The notes: a model not told the origin generated them from the letters alone. A stretch of 64,000 bases of DNA from an uncultured Fidelibacterota bacterium (GCA_913040915.1 CAJWHW010000006.1:1-64000); one strand, 5' to 3'; shown: positions 45,112 through 52,151, counted from the first letter of the stretch. Program-made: numbers and translations.

Positions 45112-45438
45112 ATGGAAGAAAAAAAGAAAAATGTTCAACAAATAAATATTGAGTTGGATGAAAAAATCAGTTCCGGTGAATATGCGAATTTTGTAGTGGT
45201 TACGCATTCACCTGCAGAATTTGTATTAGACTTTACCAGGATTTTGCCTGGAGTACCTAAAGCAAAAGTTCATTCTAGAATTGTCATGGCTCCTCAGCAT
45301 GCTAAAGCATTTTTGGGAGCTTTAAATGATAATATTCAAAAATTTGAAGCGAAAAATGGGGAAATCAAAATGCCTAGCCGTGATGAAGGCTTTTCATCAT
45401 TTGGTGTAAAACCACCAAATGACGTTCTTCCAAACTAA
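45112..45438 (+). CDS. DUF3467 family protein
   Basis: GEYAN, HSPAEFVLDF, SRIVMAPQHAK. Confidence 0.85.
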   Translation: MEEKKKNVQQINIELDEKISSGEYANFVVVTHSPAEFVLDFTRILPGVPKAKVHSRIVMAPQHAKAFLGALNDNIQKFEAKNGEIKMPSRDEGFSSFGVKPPNDVLPN

Positions 45439-46037
45439 ACATATTTTTCAGGTAAATCACTTTCATACCATACCCAGGTATGGCCGCGCTTTAATTCTCT
45501 CATTTTTAAGATTACCCAAAAGGTAAGAACAATCCAAGCCACCGCGTAACCAAATAATGCACCTACTATAACATCTGCAGGGTAGTGTACCCCAACGTAG
45601 ACTCTTGAAAAAGCAATAGTTATAGCTAAGATAAGAATCGGATATTTCATTTTGCTATAGAAGTAGGATAAAATAACAAATGAGGCAAACATATTGGCTG
45701 CGTGATTGGATGGCATACTCCATTTTCCTCCTTTTCCAACCAATAGATTCAAGTATTCTGTTAGTTCATGAGAAGGGCGAATTCGACTAAAATATGGTTT
45801 TAAGAGTTGTGCGGAAACAGCATCTGTGAGTCCCAAAGAAATGATTAAAATTATAAGGGTAATCCTACCTCTTTTCCCATTATAAAATAAAAGATAAAGA
45901 ATCAGTGCTATGATAGGTACTATCCAATTATCTTTATTGGTAATCAGAGGCATGAAAAGATCAAAAATTGGATTGGATAGAGATTGATTTATCCAAAACA
46001 GGATTATCACATCAATCGATTCTAAAATTTGGTACAT
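45435..46037 (-). CDS. PAP2 family phosphatase
   Basis: K…RIRP, SMPSNHA, SRVYVGVHYPAD. Confidence 0.9.
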   Translation of the reverse strand: MYQILESIDVIILFWINQSLSNPIFDLFMPLITNKDNWIVPIIALILYLLFYNGKRGRITLIILIISLGLTDAVSAQLLKPYFSRIRPSHELTEYLNLLVGKGGKWSMPSNHAANMFASFVILSYFYSKMKYPILILAITIAFSRVYVGVHYPADVIVGALFGYAVAWIVLTFWVILKMRELKRGHTWVWYESDLPEKYV

Positions 46038-46121: not shown

Positions 46122-49100
46122 TTAAAATCTTGTCTGAAGCCTAAGAAGGAGTACTCTGCCTAATGATGGACCGCCAATAATTTCTGTATGTTGATGATTT
46201 AAAACATTAGAGACAGTAAAATTTCCTTTTAAGTATTGATTAAATTCGTAACCCAGATGTAGGTCAAAAATTGTATAGGGTTTAATATTGCCAAAATAAA
46301 TTCCTGATGACCACTTAAATCCATCTACATACCGAGCATTTAATGATGCTGTAAATGGTGTCCGCCTCGGATTGAATTGTAGTTTCATCCCTGCTTTATG
46401 TCGAGGTGCATTGATTGGGTCTTTTGCCTTAGTGATAGGATTATAAAATTCTGTCATTCCTAAATGGGAATAAGTGAGATCCAATGACCATTCTAAATTT
46501 AAAATAGCTGTGATGCTAGCATCTAGTCCCCACATATCCACTTCGCCATAATTGATATAACCAACTACTACAGGAGGTGTATAACCAGGAATGGTATCCA
46601 TAGCTGTGACTCCCTGGATACTTCCGCGCCAATGGTTAAATGCCTCATCATAATCATCTCTATCTATGATATTATCATTTTCAAGATCTTTGATCGTATT
46701 TATTAAACTATCGCCATCATAATCCGTTTCCAATACAGATTTTTCAATAACGATTGGTGTTATGAATGTAACAGGGCTAACAAAACTACTATAATGACTA
46801 GTATATAAATCAAGCGTACCAAAAACTCTAGAGTTCAAGCGTCCCTTCCAGCCAAATTCCCAAGATTTAACTGTTTCTGCTTTGATTTCAGGTAAATCTG
46901 TAACTGTTTGTCCAAAAAACCCTGGAATTTTTGGATCTGTGGATGGATAAAAGAAAATACTTTCACTGGTGTCAACCGGTTGATAATTGAATTCTTTGGT
47001 ACTATAGTAATAAGGATTTCCCACTGAATCTTTTGGAAAAACATACCCGCCATCTGCACCACGAGCATACACTTTAAAGATTGAAACCCTAGTAACAAAA
47101 ATGTCTAAAAATAAAGCCTGATTGGAAGGAGTATTAAAAGCTGTAGCCCAGGTCAGACGGAAATTCTGGTTTTCTTTAGGTCGGTATACTAAACCTATTT
47201 TAGGTGAAATTTGAATACCATCAGTTTGATCAAAATCAAAATTCCAATCAAAAGGACTATAGCCCATTCCATAGCCCTGATTATTAAATTCGATTAAATT
47301 AGTTAAGCGGTCATGGATATCAAACCGCGTAGCTTGAATAAATTCCCATTTTGGATTCAGTTTCCAATTGACCTGGTAATACGCGCCTAATTCATTCACC
47401 GTATAACGGTTGTCTTCGGCTGCTTCATCTATACCTTCATCTATATTTTCATCAATCTTTCCATCACCATCATTATCTTTACCATCAGCATAGACTAAGA
47501 ATCGTTGTCCGCCAAGCCATTGAACACCTGGTTCAACAGTTTCTCCAAGTTCAAATTTTCCACTACCGTCTGCATCTACATAGTCAGGAATACCATTGCC
47601 ATTCAAATCTTTAAAATCATCACTGTCCTGATCATTATCAAATCCATCTGCGATTGCTCCCAGGACTGAATCAGTCGAATCAGTTGGTGTACCGGTTGCT
47701 GTTCCATTTTCTGTTGCCCATCTTGTAAAGTTTTCTCCAGTGTCATACCAAGTATTATCATTTTTATCATAAAAAATATAAGGTGATCCAGATTCGCCAG
47801 TATTATTGTTATCCCTTTTATCAGAAAAATTTTTATCAGATAAAATAGTACCACGGGTATCCGGTAGAGTTAAAAAATAGTCTATACCCCAGACAAATCG
47901 TAAATCACCATTTTTCCATTCATTTATATGCTGTAGTTGTGCACTGAATTTTTTTGATCTATCATAAATTATACTTCCTGTCGCAAGGTTACGCGTTGGT
48001 CGTTCTGGATCACCAGAATAACTAGTATTTAAATAACTTTGTAAAAAGAAATTCTTATATCTTGCTTTGGCTTGATAATAGCGGTAGACCCAACCATCCG
48101 CAAGATAACGTGCGATTCCAGTAATATTAATATTGCGTGCCCATGCATATCCATGTGATAAACTCATAGTGAGATCTGAGTTGGGTTCCCAGTCTAAGCG
48201 AAGATCATATCTATAATTTCTTACTTTGAATTCTGGGAAGTCATCTATCCCATCATCGTTTGCATCTGGATAAATATGTGGTAGCCCTCCGTAATCAATC
48301 GAAAAATCCTTTTCATCTTTTTCATCTACACCTATTTCCCCTATACTTGGTTTTCCATTCTCATCTAAATCGTTGAATTCAAATTGATCCCATTGACCAT
48401 TCCCGTTTAAATCTGTGTAAGATTCACCATCCCAAGTACCATTACCTTCACCATAATCATTTGTATTGCGTGTTAAATCTAAACCAAAATCTGCAAATAG
48501 CTCAGCATTGGTATAAGAGCCATCACCATTTAAATCAGTAAATGGCTCTCCAGAATCATATGATCCATTTTCATTTGAATCTATAAAAGGTTCAGCATCG
48601 TCCCAAATACCATTTTCATTGGTATCAAAAAAAATTTCTGAAGAAGGAAAGCCATTTCCATCAAAATCTTCAAAATCTTCTTCTGGAACATCCCAGGGCT
48701 TATTGTTTGCATCAATATATAGACCCCAATCCCCGTCATCATCTAATCCATTTGATCCCCAGTCATCATCATAAATTCCATTTTGATTTGTATCAAATAC
48801 AATATTTCCTTCTGAATCATATTTATAATCTCCAAATCCAGACTTATGGGAGGAATCCATCACAGACCAGACTGAATCAGGACTGGAAAAAACTGTAAGA
48901 TATGGATCACCTGTAATTGAACTTCCAAATCTGTCCAACCATGCACTCCCTATTTCATCTGATTCATCAACCAATCCATCTCTATCATTATCAACACCAT
49001 CATACCATGCTTCAGGTTCATCATCAATCCCAAGATCAATCCCTTCATCTATTGCACCGTCCCCATCATTGTCAATCCCATCTGCATAAACATTTCCAAT

Positions 49101-50288
49101 CTGTTCTTCTGTAACAAACCAAAGAACCATACCATTTTCTAATGTATATCGATTAAACTCATCATTAAGTGCTTCATCTACCATTTCCTGTGTAATTAAT
49201 GGTGATCCATCTTCTCCACCAGAAGTTGCGATATAGTCACCCCAGTAACTTCCAATCCAATTTTCATTTGCTCCTTCAACAGCACTTATCATCTCCTGGG
49301 TAAATTTTGGAGAACCTGATTCACCTAATTGGCCACCACGATCAATACGGTCATGTTTCAGATTTGGTCGTCCAATAAATACAGGATCGTGACCTTCATA
49401 CTCATCTTCATTATAATGTGTCCAATCCTGTCCTGCCAGTGCGACTCCAGAAATTTTAAATCCAAAATCACCAAATTTATGTGCTGTACGAAATGTGAGT
49501 TTTTTCAATAAATCAGTATCTGTCTGACTTAATAAACCACCTTGAATATTGATACTCGTTCCTTGAGTGCGAATAGGGGATGATGTGACTATATTTAATA
49601 CGCCGCTATGGGCATTTGGTCCGTAGAGTGCTGATGCAGGCCCCAATACAACCTCAATTTGTTCCACATCTTCAAAAGAGACAGGAATGACGTTGTATGC
49701 GGTAAGTCTGAGAGAAGGTACATTTGCCATTCGTCCATCCGTCAAAGTTAAAAGACGGGAACTGAAGGATGAATTAAACCCACGAGCAGTCATATTATAA
49801 CTGTCAATCCCGGATTGAGTGAAATCTATACCTTTCGTCCCTTTTAAATAATCCCCCAGATTGGTATTGCTTTCTCTTCTAATTTCTTTTTTTGAAATAA
49901 CCGAAATAGCAGCAGGTGCATCTTCCACTCTTTCTCTTCGTCTCGATGCAGTTACTACATAAGTCTCCATTTGAATTGTTTCTGGTATTAATTCCAGATC
50001 TTGAGTAAGGGTTTTACCCACTTCAACAACCAAATCAATTTTGAGATTTTCATACCCAATATAAGTAACCATGAGAGTGTATTCACCCGGATCTACTTGA
50101 AAAATAGTATATTGACCATCGGTACTCGAAGCAGCTCCCTGTGCTGTGCCTTCCAGTACGACATTGGCACCCATGAGTGGTGAACCGTTAGTTTTATCTA
50201 AAACTTTTCCTGTAATGGTACCGTTTTGGGCAAAACTAGACCCACTAATTATGAACAGAGTTATTATTATTTTTCTTAATGGATTCAT
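46122..50288 (-). CDS. Giant TonB-dependent receptor with acidic repeat insertions
   Basis: Signal peptide, CarboxypepD_reg-like domain, VVTASR, ARGF, LTDGR, QIEVVLGPASALYG plug; C-terminal GRVLLLRLQTRF; about 390- and 140-aa acidic inserts. Confidence 0.88.
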   Translation of the reverse strand: MNPLRKIIITLFIISGSSFAQNGTITGKVLDKTNGSPLMGANVVLEGTAQGAASSTDGQYTIFQVDPGEYTLMVTYIGYENLKIDLVVEVGKTLTQDLELIPETIQMETYVVTASRRRERVEDAPAAISVISKKEIRRESNTNLGDYLKGTKGIDFTQSGIDSYNMTARGFNSSFSSRLLTLTDGRMANVPSLRLTAYNVIPVSFEDVEQIEVVLGPASALYGPNAHSGVLNIVTSSPIRTQGTSINIQGGLLSQTDTDLLKKLTFRTAHKFGDFGFKISGVALAGQDWTHYNEDEYEGHDPVFIGRPNLKHDRIDRGGQLGESGSPKFTQEMISAVEGANENWIGSYWGDYIATSGGEDGSPLITQEMVDEALNDEFNRYTLENGMVLWFVTEEQIGNVYADGIDNDGDGAIDEGIDLGIDDEPEAWYDGVDNDRDGLVDESDEIGSAWLDRFGSSITGDPYLTVFSSPDSVWSVMDSSHKSGFGDYKYDSEGNIVFDTNQNGIYDDDWGSNGLDDDGDWGLYIDANNKPWDVPEEDFEDFDGNGFPSSEIFFDTNENGIWDDAEPFIDSNENGSYDSGEPFTDLNGDGSYTNAELFADFGLDLTRNTNDYGEGNGTWDGESYTDLNGNGQWDQFEFNDLDENGKPSIGEIGVDEKDEKDFSIDYGGLPHIYPDANDDGIDDFPEFKVRNYRYDLRLDWEPNSDLTMSLSHGYAWARNINITGIARYLADGWVYRYYQAKARYKNFFLQSYLNTSYSGDPERPTRNLATGSIIYDRSKKFSAQLQHINEWKNGDLRFVWGIDYFLTLPDTRGTILSDKNFSDKRDNNNTGESGSPYIFYDKNDNTWYDTGENFTRWATENGTATGTPTDSTDSVLGAIADGFDNDQDSDDFKDLNGNGIPDYVDADGSGKFELGETVEPGVQWLGGQRFLVYADGKDNDGDGKIDENIDEGIDEAAEDNRYTVNELGAYYQVNWKLNPKWEFIQATRFDIHDRLTNLIEFNNQGYGMGYSPFDWNFDFDQTDGIQISPKIGLVYRPKENQNFRLTWATAFNTPSNQALFLDIFVTRVSIFKVYARGADGGYVFPKDSVGNPYYYSTKEFNYQPVDTSESIFFYPSTDPKIPGFFGQTVTDLPEIKAETVKSWEFGWKGRLNSRVFGTLDLYTSHYSSFVSPVTFITPIVIEKSVLETDYDGDSLINTIKDLENDNIIDRDDYDEAFNHWRGSIQGVTAMDTIPGYTPPVVVGYINYGEVDMWGLDASITAILNLEWSLDLTYSHLGMTEFYNPITKAKDPINAPRHKAGMKLQFNPRRTPFTASLNARYVDGFKWSSGIYFGNIKPYTIFDLHLGYEFNQYLKGNFTVSNVLNHQHTEIIGGPSLGRVLLLRLQTRF
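48300..49090 (-). repeat. Coding repeats: DGxDNDxDGxxDE and about 15-aa E-x-F-x-D-x-N-x-N/DG-x-Y/W-D units
   Basis: DGIDNDGDGAIDE, DGVDNDRDGLVDE, EIFFDTNENGIWDDA, EPFIDSNENGSYDSG, EPFTDLNGDGSYTNA, ESYTDLNGNGQWD. Confidence 0.85.
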
Positions 50289-50296
50289 ATTAGATA

Positions 50297-50329
50297 CTGA
50301 ACAGCCCCGTAAAAAACGAGGCTGTTCAG
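50297..50329 (-). promoter_or_regulatory. 14-bp intergenic stem-loop without a U-tract
   Basis: Minus strand CTGAACAGCCTCGT-TTTTT-ACGGGGCTGTTCAG, ending 8 nt before the receptor ATG. Confidence 0.7.
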
Positions 50330-50360: not shown

Positions 50361-52151
50361 TTATTTCAATAACAGCATTTTTCCTTTTTGAATTCGATTA
50401 TCGGAACGTACTTCATAGAAGTATACACCGCTCGGGACTTTATTCCCAAAATGATCAGTTCCAAACCAAGAGATATTATAGGTGCCGGCATCCAAACCTC
50501 CATTATGAAGTTTGGTCACTTCCTGACCTAAGATTGAATAAATCGTGATTTGTACATCAGAAAATTTCTCCGTAGCAAACTTAATTTGCGTTGAAGGGTT
50601 GAATGGATTCGGATAGTTGCCATAGACTTCAAATTTTTGAGCTATTGGTGCATCTTGGTCCATTGCTAATTGAGTATTTCCCCAAAATGTATTTACACGT
50701 TGAGTAGTATTATCTGGAATACAATTGTTATCAACTTCCATTACTAATCTACCCGTTTCATCATAGTCATTGTAATCCCAACCGGAATCATCTACTCCAC
50801 ATCCATCTTCATCTGGACAAGCATTCTCAACACCTATTAGCGTGAGAGTTGGTCCAGCTTCCATTACGTCTAAACAGGCCATTGGATCACCATAGTAGGC
50901 GAAACATTCATTAAACCAAGCAGTTAGTGTATCTCCAACACCTGCGGCAACAGCATCTGCATAAGGATCATCAAGATAAATCTCAGCAACTGAATCTGCA
51001 GCTGCAGTCGCAGAAAGATTTACGTCATTAGTTGCAGTAAACCATTCTTCAAATACACCTGAGAACCAACCAGCAGCTTCCATAAAGTTATAGGTAAAGA
51101 AATAACCTGTAGGAGCTAAAGGCTCATCTCCATTAAATGGTACACCATCATCACCAACTGGGTCGAACAAATAACCATGATTAACTTCAACTAAACCTGC
51201 AGGAATTGTGTCTCCAAAGATTGGATCAATTTCATAACTATCTGGGTTTTCGGGATCAATTGGATGCCCTTGGCCACCTATCATTGGAGCAGAAAGAGTA
51301 GTATCACCAGTCCATCCTAGTTCATACCAAAGGCTGGTATCAGGATGCAACCAGGCAAGGTAATCATCCATATTCCCAATTGTAACTGTATCGCCTGGTG
51401 AAACAGGAACTCCAGTCCAACCATTTAATTGACCATCTTCATTTACCCCAAGTCCACTTGCTGTGCCATCATGGGCTTCCCAATAAATTTCAAGTGCTGC
51501 CGGTGTTGTATGTTCAGCATCTGTATAATCAATAGTAACCATACCCCAGTTTTCCATATCTGTACCTACACCATAATCTTGACCATACTGTCCATTCACA
51601 AGATCTGGTGCACCGAATTGAGCAAAAACTGAGGACAAAGAAATACCCCAGCCCATTGAATGCGCATATGGATGTTCTGGATCATCAGTGTGATCAAATC
51701 CAGGTGTGCTTGTCCATGTTCCTGCTTCAGCAACTTCTGGTACTGTCGCAAATGTAGAGCAATCTATTGTTTCGGTTGTTGGATACGTACTCCCATCATT
51801 GATTGTAAATGTTCCACCATCATTAAGATCCACATTCATCGCAACGCCCTGCCAGGCCAGAAGAGCCTCATTTATCAATGGTACGAGTACAACTGCGATG
51901 GTATCACCAACGTCATACTCTACCAATGTATGGGTATAACCCAAGCCAGCAGCAGCTGCTGCTGAACTAGGCCATGATGCAGTCACTTCATAGCCTGCTT
52001 CTGCTGAATCTTCAGGACTGTCAAATTCACGTACTTCATACGTGTATTCAACAATAGCCGCACCCAATTGCCAATTGGCTTGAATACTTTGGGAAAACAA
52101 AAGTCCCATAAAAAGCATTGTTGGAAGGAAATATTTGAGCATTTTATTCAT
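50361..52151 (-). CDS. Acidic secreted protein with C-terminal secretion-type (CTD/FlgD-Ig) domain
   Basis: Signal peptide; D/E/G/aromatic-rich body with six Cys; NYPNPFNP…IYSILGQEV…SGVYFY…KMLLLK; AAGGAG RBS. Confidence 0.75.
   Translation of the reverse strand: MNKMLKYFLPTMLFMGLLFSQSIQANWQLGAAIVEYTYEVREFDSPEDSAEAGYEVTASWPSSAAAAAGLGYTHTLVEYDVGDTIAVVLVPLINEALLAWQGVAMNVDLNDGGTFTINDGSTYPTTETIDCSTFATVPEVAEAGTWTSTPGFDHTDDPEHPYAHSMGWGISLSSVFAQFGAPDLVNGQYGQDYGVGTDMENWGMVTIDYTDAEHTTPAALEIYWEAHDGTASGLGVNEDGQLNGWTGVPVSPGDTVTIGNMDDYLAWLHPDTSLWYELGWTGDTTLSAPMIGGQGHPIDPENPDSYEIDPIFGDTIPAGLVEVNHGYLFDPVGDDGVPFNGDEPLAPTGYFFTYNFMEAAGWFSGVFEEWFTATNDVNLSATAAADSVAEIYLDDPYADAVAAGVGDTLTAWFNECFAYYGDPMACLDVMEAGPTLTLIGVENACPDEDGCGVDDSGWDYNDYDETGRLVMEVDNNCIPDNTTQRVNTFWGNTQLAMDQDAPIAQKFEVYGNYPNPFNPSTQIKFATEKFSDVQITIYSILGQEVTKLHNGGLDAGTYNISWFGTDHFGNKVPSGVYFYEVRSDNRIQKGKMLLLK

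Follow-up and report, generated by a model that had tools for sequence, protein, structure and literature searches.

The TonB-dependent transporter gene P0001 of an uncultured Fidelibacterota bacterium encodes an outer-membrane receptor with two giant acidic extracellular loops, assembled from modules shared with other secreted surface proteins, and is preceded by a gene for a secreted protein with which it is very probably co-transcribed. The pair lies in a stretch of 64,000 nucleotides (nt) (GCA_913040915.1 CAJWHW010000006.1:1-64000; the window, hereafter) from a genome assembly, G000, of 1.86 Mb in 71 contigs that is 85% complete. Taken as a whole, we think it probable that the receptor is a TonB-driven importer whose module-built loops, of a calcium-binding type, form a crown, and that the upstream gene supplies a dedicated, co-transcribed surface partner that captures the substrate together with the crown. 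Marinimicrobia (SAR406), the group named in the database records of the receptor's relatives, count among the ocean's abundant uncultured bacteria.

The receptor is a complete TonB-dependent transporter

The receptor belongs to the TonB-dependent transporter family, and every sequence-level feature of that family that we looked for is present. The N-terminal segments and the Plug domain (Table 1) are followed by a match to the TonB barrel family PF00593 at residues 800-1362 (81.6 bits, cut-off 27), and the protein ends in ...LQTRF, with Phe as the final residue. Both the terminal Phe and the segment ETYVVTASR agree with what we take to be the respective consensus, the latter that of the TonB box. 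Moreover, the region of ETYVVTASR aligns with the N-termini of the Cir and BtuB chains, the alignments starting at residues 107-108 of the query and 5-7 of the chains. The Plug is 92-98% identical among same-family orthologues, and a TonB_C domain is encoded elsewhere in the genome (76.4 bits, at G000:C1). Database records call its relatives 'MAG: TonB-dependent receptor [Candidatus Marinimicrobia bacterium]' or 'Candidatus Neomarinimicrobiota'. The product is a TonB-dependent transporter of the outer membrane, complete in its parts, from a Marinimicrobia bacterium, with import as its predicted function. The intact plug and C-terminal strand noticed in an initial annotation of the window, which was made from the sequence alone, are borne out by the Pfam domains, the terminal Phe and a 22-strand structure model.

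Two acidic loops make up about 40% of the protein

The model, generated with AlphaFold2 for residues 246-1388 from an alignment of 20 sequences, has a mean predicted local distance difference test score (pLDDT) of 55.8. Its barrel strands, 22 by count, are confident (block-mean pLDDT of about 72-91), and turns of 2-4 residues follow strands 2, 4, 6, 8, 10, 12, 14 and 16. In the known topology of these transporters, strand 1 emerges from the plug at the periplasmic face, so that turns after even-numbered strands are periplasmic. The short turns of the model are accordingly periplasmic and, by strand parity, the long connections are extracellular. The two large inserts fall in loops L2 (residues 288-687) and L5 (residues 808-965), and the small acidic motif DYDGD (residues 1189-1193, window about 46710-46724) falls inside L8; loop L7, of 85 aa, is also long and on the outer side. 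The initial annotation had located the same inserts and DYDGD, and had supposed that they were extracellular loops, proposing structure prediction as the check; in the model they map to L2, L5 and L8 and the barrel is unbroken. Foldseek matches of the receptor model include Cir (E 1.0e-17) and BtuB with bound calcium (1nqg; E 5.9e-17), as well as PfeA and OprC. The inserts were modelled at pLDDT 25-45, except for residues about 326-405 (about 60-80).

Together, L2 and L5 comprise 558 aa, about 40% of the protein. The original estimate of over 500 aa of inserted sequence is correct for the two loops in full but overstates the net gain, which is about 434 aa when residues 294-687 and 820-960 are compared with the 73 and 28 aa found at these positions in the nearest short-loop relative.

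The inserts are extremely acidic, with net charges of -87 (insert 1) and -26 (insert 2), and the whole receptor is devoid of cysteine. Scanning for the pattern D/N-x-D/N-x-D/N-G-x-x-polar detected 12 motifs, ten in insert 1 (at residues 406, 433, 499, 541, 555, 570, 585, 626, 640 and 675) and two in insert 2 (at 894 and 938). In a control of 5000 composition-preserving shuffles, none reached the ten motifs of insert 1 (shuffle mean 0.33, maximum 4) or the 12 of the whole receptor (0.28 expected); insert 2 alone is not significant, its two motifs being reached by 60 of the 5000. Genome-wide, the receptor accounts for 12 of the 112 matches in 581,246 aa (frames of at least 150 aa), a number equalled by one other frame, which is an FG-GAP protein by Pfam. 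The Dx[DN]xDG motif that had been reported for the inserts is thus found at 12 sites, and both of the repeat types described with it are also present: DGxDNDxDGxxDE (type A) at residues 403, 430 and 935, and tandem units of 14-15 aa (type B) at 541/555/570/585 and 626/640. Many of the type B units fit positions 1, 3, 5, 6 and 9 of an EF-hand-type loop.

The loops are built from modules shared with other surface proteins

A phmmer search of 1.84 billion representative proteins with insert 1 gave 613 matches at E<=1e-3, 139 at 1e-10 and 10 at 1e-30. A Pfam scan that covered 26 of the 150 matches listed for this insert identified six TonB receptors, four PF11617 repeat proteins, five other surface or signalling proteins (PKD/PA14, Listeria-Bacteroides repeat, PD40, CHASE2 cyclase and AI-2E transporter) and 11 proteins without a family.

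Closer inspection of the type A motif revealed that it ends a module of roughly 60 aa, 'GSPxxTQEM ... DGIDNDGDGxIDE'. L2 contains two copies, of which the one from residue 325 is truncated and the one from 361 is complete, ending at the DGIDNDGDGxIDE of position 403; DGVDNDRDG follows at 430. The GSPxxTQEM module is present three times in each of P0092 and P0116, proteins of about 1300 aa that are not TonB-dependent transporters, have no Pfam match at E<=0.001, and have C-terminal ends that look by eye like a sorting domain of the type IX secretion system (T9SS), one that Pfam does not call. P0123 likewise carries the GSPxxTQEM...DNDGDG module; the three proteins span about 1230-1330 aa, and P0123, too, is without a Pfam match at that threshold. 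In addition, BLASTP aligns the type A motif pair with repeats of P0005, in which 20 stretches match PF11617, the MopE-type double repeat reading CDGxDNDCDGxxDE; identity is 42-52% in most of the segments. The MopE-type cysteines are substituted in the receptor by Ala or Tyr and by Gly or Arg.

The type B block aligns with tandem 15-aa units of P0007 (1106 aa) at 45% identity (E 5e-22), and a type B-like 15-aa repeat, of the form E-P-F-x-D-x-N-x-N-G-x-W-D, is widespread, occurring in PKD/PA14 proteins, a CHASE2 cyclase and an AI-2E transporter. The type B repeats gave no match in Pfam, NCBIfam or the PDB sequences, and P0007 itself had 0 matches among PDB sequences. NCBIfam searches with the repeat block and four repeat-rich matches returned no relevant family, the one sub-threshold match, in P0012, looking like chance. 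Insert 1 as a whole had 0 matches at E<=10 among PDB chain sequences, and a search of the ESM Atlas with residues 294-687 gave no usable match. These comparisons show that the loops are assembled from modules shared with other secreted surface proteins, and the core of the receptor's loop looks like a portable module.

The inserts are conserved, and their repeat number varies

The receptor is matched at E<=1e-30 in 35 of 41 related genomes (40 plus the window's own); in the same family the figure is 21 of 24, the other three being just 57-78% complete. We aligned 21 sequences, the window protein and 20 relatives taken from their loci, and large inserts are present at both positions in 18 of the 20 relative rows. 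In same-family rows, insert 1 measures 358-396 aa (270 aa in L026) and insert 2 141-153 aa, with 59-73% and 51-80% identity to the window, respectively. Four rows have shorter loops (L023-L026, of which L026 is of the same family), with 257-270 aa for insert 1 and 82-153 aa for insert 2, and row L022 has 405 and 80 aa. The two short-loop rows belong to one other lineage (proteins of 974 and 936 aa); they have 73 aa at the insert 1 position and 28 aa at the insert 2 position, and retain two motifs each. Beyond these loci, at least 120 database relatives of 1171-1447 aa come from ENA, JGI, NCBI and Tara assemblies. Because the inserts recur in many independent assemblies, they are not an assembly artefact, and the chimera that had been named at the outset as an alternative is not upheld.

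Insert 1 divides into a conserved core, found in all 18 long-loop rows, and a variable repeat block (Table 1). The block is missing in four of the 18 and differs in length in the rest; the core and the last motif, at 675, are retained. The copy-number variation for which the initial annotation had proposed an alignment therefore exists, in the middle block. The motifs follow the same division. Among the up to 94 homologues of a 95-sequence alignment, 89-94 keep motifs 406, 433 and 675 at positions 1, 3, 5, 6 and 9 (90-94 for 406 and 433); motif 499 is retained by 67-94 of 94, the figure varying with the position, and the motifs of the variable block are present in about 13-59 of 94.

Nonsynonymous divergence (dN) is lowest in the plug (0.03-0.07) and rises through the barrel (about 0.08-0.19) and the insert core and insert 2 (0.14-0.26) to the variable block (0.20-0.44); only this ranking was used, as synonymous divergence (dS) has reached saturation, exceeding 1.2 or being undefined, everywhere except in one short segment. 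An insert dN of 0.14-0.44 alongside saturated dS indicates that the inserts are under purifying selection, although less constrained than the barrel. One relative carries an orthologue with in-frame TAA stops (G008:C103:3938-5555; open frames of 278 and 287 aa), which may be a broken gene or an assembly error.

A T9SS-sorted partner gene precedes the receptor

The initial annotation had suggested that the inserts might do the job of a separate SusD-like lid, on the grounds that none was adjacent. This does not hold: the gene of an extremely acidic, T9SS-sorted protein of 596 aa lies 72 bases upstream of the receptor, and tblastn places it directly upstream in 18 of 21 related loci. Of the three loci without it, two are those of the short-loop receptors, and in the third the contig stops within the receptor. 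In a phylum sample of 201 genomes, the insert core is matched in 48 (E<=1e-10) and the partner in 27. With a strong core match (E<=1e-25), 23 of 24 genomes have the partner, the exception being the genome with the contig end, and in 22 of those 23 it stands on the same contig beside the receptor (place tables compared by hand); related genomes are not independent, and these counts are a description of co-occurrence, not a test of it.

In addition to its sorting domain (Table 1), the partner matches PF13860 (FlgD_ig; 36.3 bits). The genome encodes T9SS machinery, namely SprA (TIGR04189, 305 and 248 bits) and a PorU-type sortase (NF033707, 563.5 bits, cut-off 420), and with both sorting domain and machinery at hand the partner qualifies as T9SS type A cargo. 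The mature protein (residues 22-510) has a net charge of -79, with one Lys, three Arg, 16 Trp and 24 Tyr. Relatives (230 matches among 8000 candidates scored) are from Marinimicrobia and annotated solely as 'hypothetical protein' or 'T9SS type A sorting domain-containing protein'. Pfam matches of the partner at E<=10 are limited to T9SS tail families, with no SusD family among them, and the protein has no lipobox. A model of residues 22-510, from 62 aligned sequences (mean pLDDT 63.8), consists of a beta-rich domain, small and barrel-like, that is closed by a C-terminal hairpin, a low-confidence middle, and a four-helix bundle (model residues 333-423, pLDDT 77-91). By Pfam and predicted fold, the partner is not SusD-like, but as a surface partner it is conserved.

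We also considered whether T9SS-sorted genes precede TonB receptors as a general rule and rejected this, since just 2 of the 16 receptor loci in this genome have one; the pairing is therefore specific to this receptor. The second such locus is at G000:C5:43311-44335.

Between the partner stop and the receptor ATG is a GC-rich hairpin (Table 1) with a fold energy of -29.8 kcal/mol in its 97-nt context. Its consensus over 15 aligned loci has 13 pairs, 11 of them with compensatory changes; a T-run follows it in about half of the 15 (read by eye), with none in the window. The hairpin ends so close to the start codon, 8 nt before it, that there is no room after it for a promoter of the receptor's own, and we therefore read the receptor as transcribed from upstream, through the hairpin. 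On this sequence arrangement, partner and receptor are very probably co-transcribed, and the hairpin may set the partner-to-receptor ratio, by attenuating transcription or by stabilising the upstream message. A sigma-70 promoter scan, which found 16 sites, fewer than the shuffle mean of 29.5, was not used.

An older form of the pair may survive in the short-loop lineage. There, a protein of 409 aa that has a lipoprotein signal (...VFSAC) and no Pfam family is encoded ahead of the receptor, and hhalign matches the partner profile to this lipoprotein with a probability of 85.6% (E 5.6e-6, 193 columns). From one lineage, this suggests that receptor and partner were already paired before the loops expanded and that the partner exchanged a lipid anchor for a T9SS one.

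Other features of the locus and genome

The features of the window are collected in Table 1. The PAP2-family membrane phosphatase gene downstream of the receptor is found in 8 of the 21 related receptor loci by tblastn, a looser link than that of the partner gene. Elsewhere in the genome, a related receptor is represented by fragments situated at the ends of contigs or close to them, G000:C49:18-932 and G000:C50:2785-3846 (C50 is 3.8 kb). They are 29-44% identical to the N-terminus of the receptor and 30-40% identical to its C-terminus, and may be one paralogue broken by assembly. A further locus, G000:C26:18250-23978, has a 1174-aa receptor after a 756-aa frame with four acidic motifs and no Pfam family.

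Table 1. Features of the receptor-partner locus, in window coordinates
Feature	Position	Strand	Residues	Remarks
PAP2-family membrane phosphatase gene	45435-46037	(-)		PF01569, 88.8 bits; 84 bases downstream of receptor, same strand
TonB-dependent transporter gene P0001	46122..50288	(-)	1388 aa	Single open frame; Plug and TonB barrel above Pfam cut-offs
Extracellular loop L8	46542..46790	(-)	1167-1249 (83 aa)	Model strands 15-16; contains DYDGD
Extracellular loop L5, with insert 2	47394..47867	(-)	808-965	Model strands 9-10; motifs 894, 938
Extracellular loop L2, with insert 1	48228..49427	(-)	288-687	Model strands 3-4; 10 motifs; net charge -87
Insert 1, variable repeat block	48324..48743	(-)	516-655	Aromatic-x-D-x-N-x-N-G-x-aromatic-D units
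Insert 1, conserved core	48744..49409	(-)	294-515	In all 18 long-loop rows
Plug domain	49599..49928	(-)	121-230	PF07715, 72.3 bits, cut-off 23.9
TonB-box-like ETYVVTASR	49944..49970	(-)	107-115	Read off translation
CarboxypepD_reg-like domain, N-terminal	49953..50219	(-)	24-112	PF13715, 68.9 bits; PF13620, 62 bits
Receptor signal peptide		(-)	1-20	Precedes CarboxypepD_reg-like domain; read off sequence
GC-rich 14-bp hairpin	50297..50329	(-)		Between partner stop and receptor ATG; ends 8 nt before ATG
Partner gene, secreted protein	50361..52151	(-)	596 aa	Signal peptide; 72 bases upstream of receptor, same strand
Partner T9SS C-terminal sorting domain	50385-50615	(-)	513-589	PF18962, 31.7 bits, cut-off 27

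A proposed model for calcium-riveted capture

How might such a receptor work? Each predicted Dx[DN]x[DN]G site would bind one Ca2+. Seawater holds about 10 mM Ca2+, at which concentration the sites would be permanently filled; calcium would therefore be a structural rivet, rather than a signal or a cargo. The ion would stiffen the loops, which are rich in Gly and Asp and have no disulfides, so that they form a rigid acidic crown over the mouth of the barrel. The partner would be tethered to the cell surface and would capture the substrate, which is probably organic, jointly with the crown, and barrel and plug would then import it with TonB energy. The system would have arisen from an ancestral pair of short-loop receptor and lipoprotein, by loop expansion and a swap of the partner's anchor. 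The motif is reported to be used for calcium by at least twelve families (PMC3123361). We put forward more tentatively, as a possibility that we do not favour over its negation, that Marinimicrobia evolved a two-part capture machine of their own, with parts unrelated to SusC/SusD: a calcium-riveted crown of portable repeats and a T9SS-anchored, co-transcribed partner, derived from the short-loop receptor and lipoprotein ancestor.

Several observations weigh against the importer-and-partner reading. Calcium binding by the inserts is predicted from a linear motif, and loop position 12 is acidic (Asp or Glu) in just 7 of the 12 sites, as read by eye. The inserts (residues 294-687 and 820-960) match 0 Pfam families at E<=10, EF-hand, dockerin, thrombospondin type-3 (TSP3) and MopE included; neither insert is matched by PF00404 (Dockerin) or PF02412 (thrombospondin type-3) at that threshold. 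At the pLDDT of 25-45 given above, no fold, crown or contact surface is visible in the model of the inserts. Loops and partner alike carry a strong negative charge, which disfavours simple direct docking unless cations bridge them. The partner's fold has no Foldseek match at E<=0.001, and a wide VIA search gave at best Z 7.9, to small lipocalin-like barrels, a score that the tool itself rates as noise level. No neighbouring gene at the receptor locus points to a cargo, and with a T9SS-sorted gene just upstream in only the 2 of 16 receptor loci mentioned, the pairing is no general rule in this genome. As for expression, it is a point in favour that near-identical Logan contigs cover the partner gene in 4 of 4 marine RNA libraries (4 studies); the receptor has one clean contig of 156 nt (48090-48245, in X1), its remaining cover being pieces of roughly 40 nt over a shared motif that continue into unlike sequence. 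Such contigs neither prove transcription nor rank genes, and missing cover says nothing about expression. As to the cargo, both proteins are polyanionic and rich in aromatic residues, which would suit a cationic ligand as well as Ca2+-bridged anionic polymers and gives no choice between them.

The same charges could be read differently. With -87, -26 and -79 on insert 1, insert 2 and the partner, the polyanionic loops and acidic partner might scavenge a scarce cation directly (Fe3+, Cu, lanthanides or similar) and pass it into the barrel. The type A motif resembles the repeats of PF11617 ('Cu-binding_MopE, putative metal-binding motif'), and the nearest solved relatives by sequence and fold include the metal and siderophore receptors Cir, PfeA and OprC. 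However, carboxylate sites would be swamped by the Ca2+ and Mg2+ of seawater, at the concentrations generally given for it, and the inserts have no Cys and few His, the usual ligands of Cu. The PF11617 model, with its paired cysteines, itself gives no match to the inserts at Pfam E<=10, the acidic core alone aligning. Moreover, the matches to solved siderophore receptors and the best-scoring NCBIfam matches are restricted to the plug region (residues 98-310), and no siderophore or metal-regulation gene is adjacent. We regard metal scavenging as unlikely. A role outside uptake, in which the loops are a surface shield against phages or grazers, or an adhesin to Ca2+-bridged marine gels, and specificity resides in barrel and plug, would account for the rapid evolution and length variation of the middle repeat block, the fastest-evolving segment of all (dN 0.20-0.44 versus 0.03-0.07 in the plug), as expected under diversifying pressure. 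It would also agree with the occurrence of the repeat units in large adhesin-like proteins with PKD, PA14 or Listeria-Bacteroides repeats. What speaks against it is that about 94 homologues show almost no variation in the insert core and its motifs, and that a strict association with a single partner gene is more in keeping with a dedicated two-part receptor than with a generic coat; we give this explanation a small chance, if marginally the best one among the three rivals considered here.

An assembly of the dockerin-cohesin kind, in which the EF-hand-like units would be Ca2+-dependent plugs that hold the partner or other T9SS proteins on the receptor, seems to us the least probable of these. 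The units do fit positions 1, 3, 5, 6 and 9 of the EF-hand/dockerin calcium loop, and numerous surface proteins, those of the T9SS among them, contain the same units. In ESM Atlas clusters close to the partner, 15-32% of members have Cohesin, which is a lead only, as the clusters share mainly the sorting domain. In contrast, neither the inserts nor the partner has a Dockerin or Cohesin match in Pfam at E<=10. The unit period of 14-15 aa, with no flanking helix in the model, differs from the dockerin segment, which is roughly 22 aa long, and the partner model, a small beta-barrel-like domain with a four-helix bundle, has no cohesin match.

The pair, a conserved receptor that has 40% of its mass outside the barrel and a dedicated secreted partner, offers a concrete target for asking how Marinimicrobia select and capture dissolved or particulate organic matter. 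Marinimicrobia TonB-dependent transporters have been detected in upper-ocean metaproteomes, as reported in general terms (PMC5776962). In the literature on Marinimicrobia/SAR406 TonB transporters, T9SS and calcium-binding loop insertions, titles and the openings of abstracts (supplements excluded) contain no description of this receptor or its partner. The 15-aa acidic repeat family and the roughly 60-aa 'GSPxxTQEM ... DNDGDG' module, which Pfam, NCBIfam and PDB sequences do not cover, could be curated, and the natural series from short to giant loops is useful for asking how barrel loops acquire domains.

Comparison with known systems

The closest precedent for the loops is BtuB, the cobalamin transporter of Escherichia coli, which has the same plug-in-barrel fold (phmmer plug match E 7e-12, in addition to the Foldseek match above). 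In BtuB, two Ca2+ in a five-aspartate cage in the extracellular loops restrain loop L2 and raise the affinity for cobalamin 1000-fold (PMC7360065); the logic that we propose is the same, and it too would apply to L2. The scale is different. BtuB is a protein of 594 aa with two Ca2+ sites and short loops, whereas here L2 and L5 amount to 558 aa and bear 12 linear, predicted sites derived from repeat modules. Unlike BtuB, the present receptor also has an N-terminal CarboxypepD_reg domain and a dedicated partner gene.

The acidic motifs have counterparts of their own. The DGxDNDxDGxxDE core aligns with MopE-type repeats (PF11617), from which it differs in that the defining cysteines are replaced, and the acidic double-disulfide repeat NF033662 of NCBIfam is weakly matched at residues 430-444 (E 0.0031, 17.2 bits versus a cut-off of 41). 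Because Pfam's MopE, dockerin, TSP3 and EF-hand models do not recognise the motifs, these families are relatives in motif only.

In its arrangement, the pair is reminiscent of the SusC/SusD and RagA/RagB pairs of Bacteroidota. The receptor has an N-terminal CarboxypepD_reg-like extension, its gene adjoins that of a surface partner, and the partner of the short-loop relative is a lipoprotein, as SusD is. However, the receptor is not of the SusC/RagA type, the signature TIGR04057 scoring 12.2 bits against a cut-off of 46.2 (E 0.12), and the modelled partner is a beta domain with a four-helix bundle, not a TPR-like helical lid. Moreover, the partner gene is upstream rather than downstream of the receptor, and its product is T9SS-sorted rather than lipidated. 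We propose that receptor and partner resemble a two-part receptor such as SusC/SusD in logic, by analogy, with parts that are unrelated to it.

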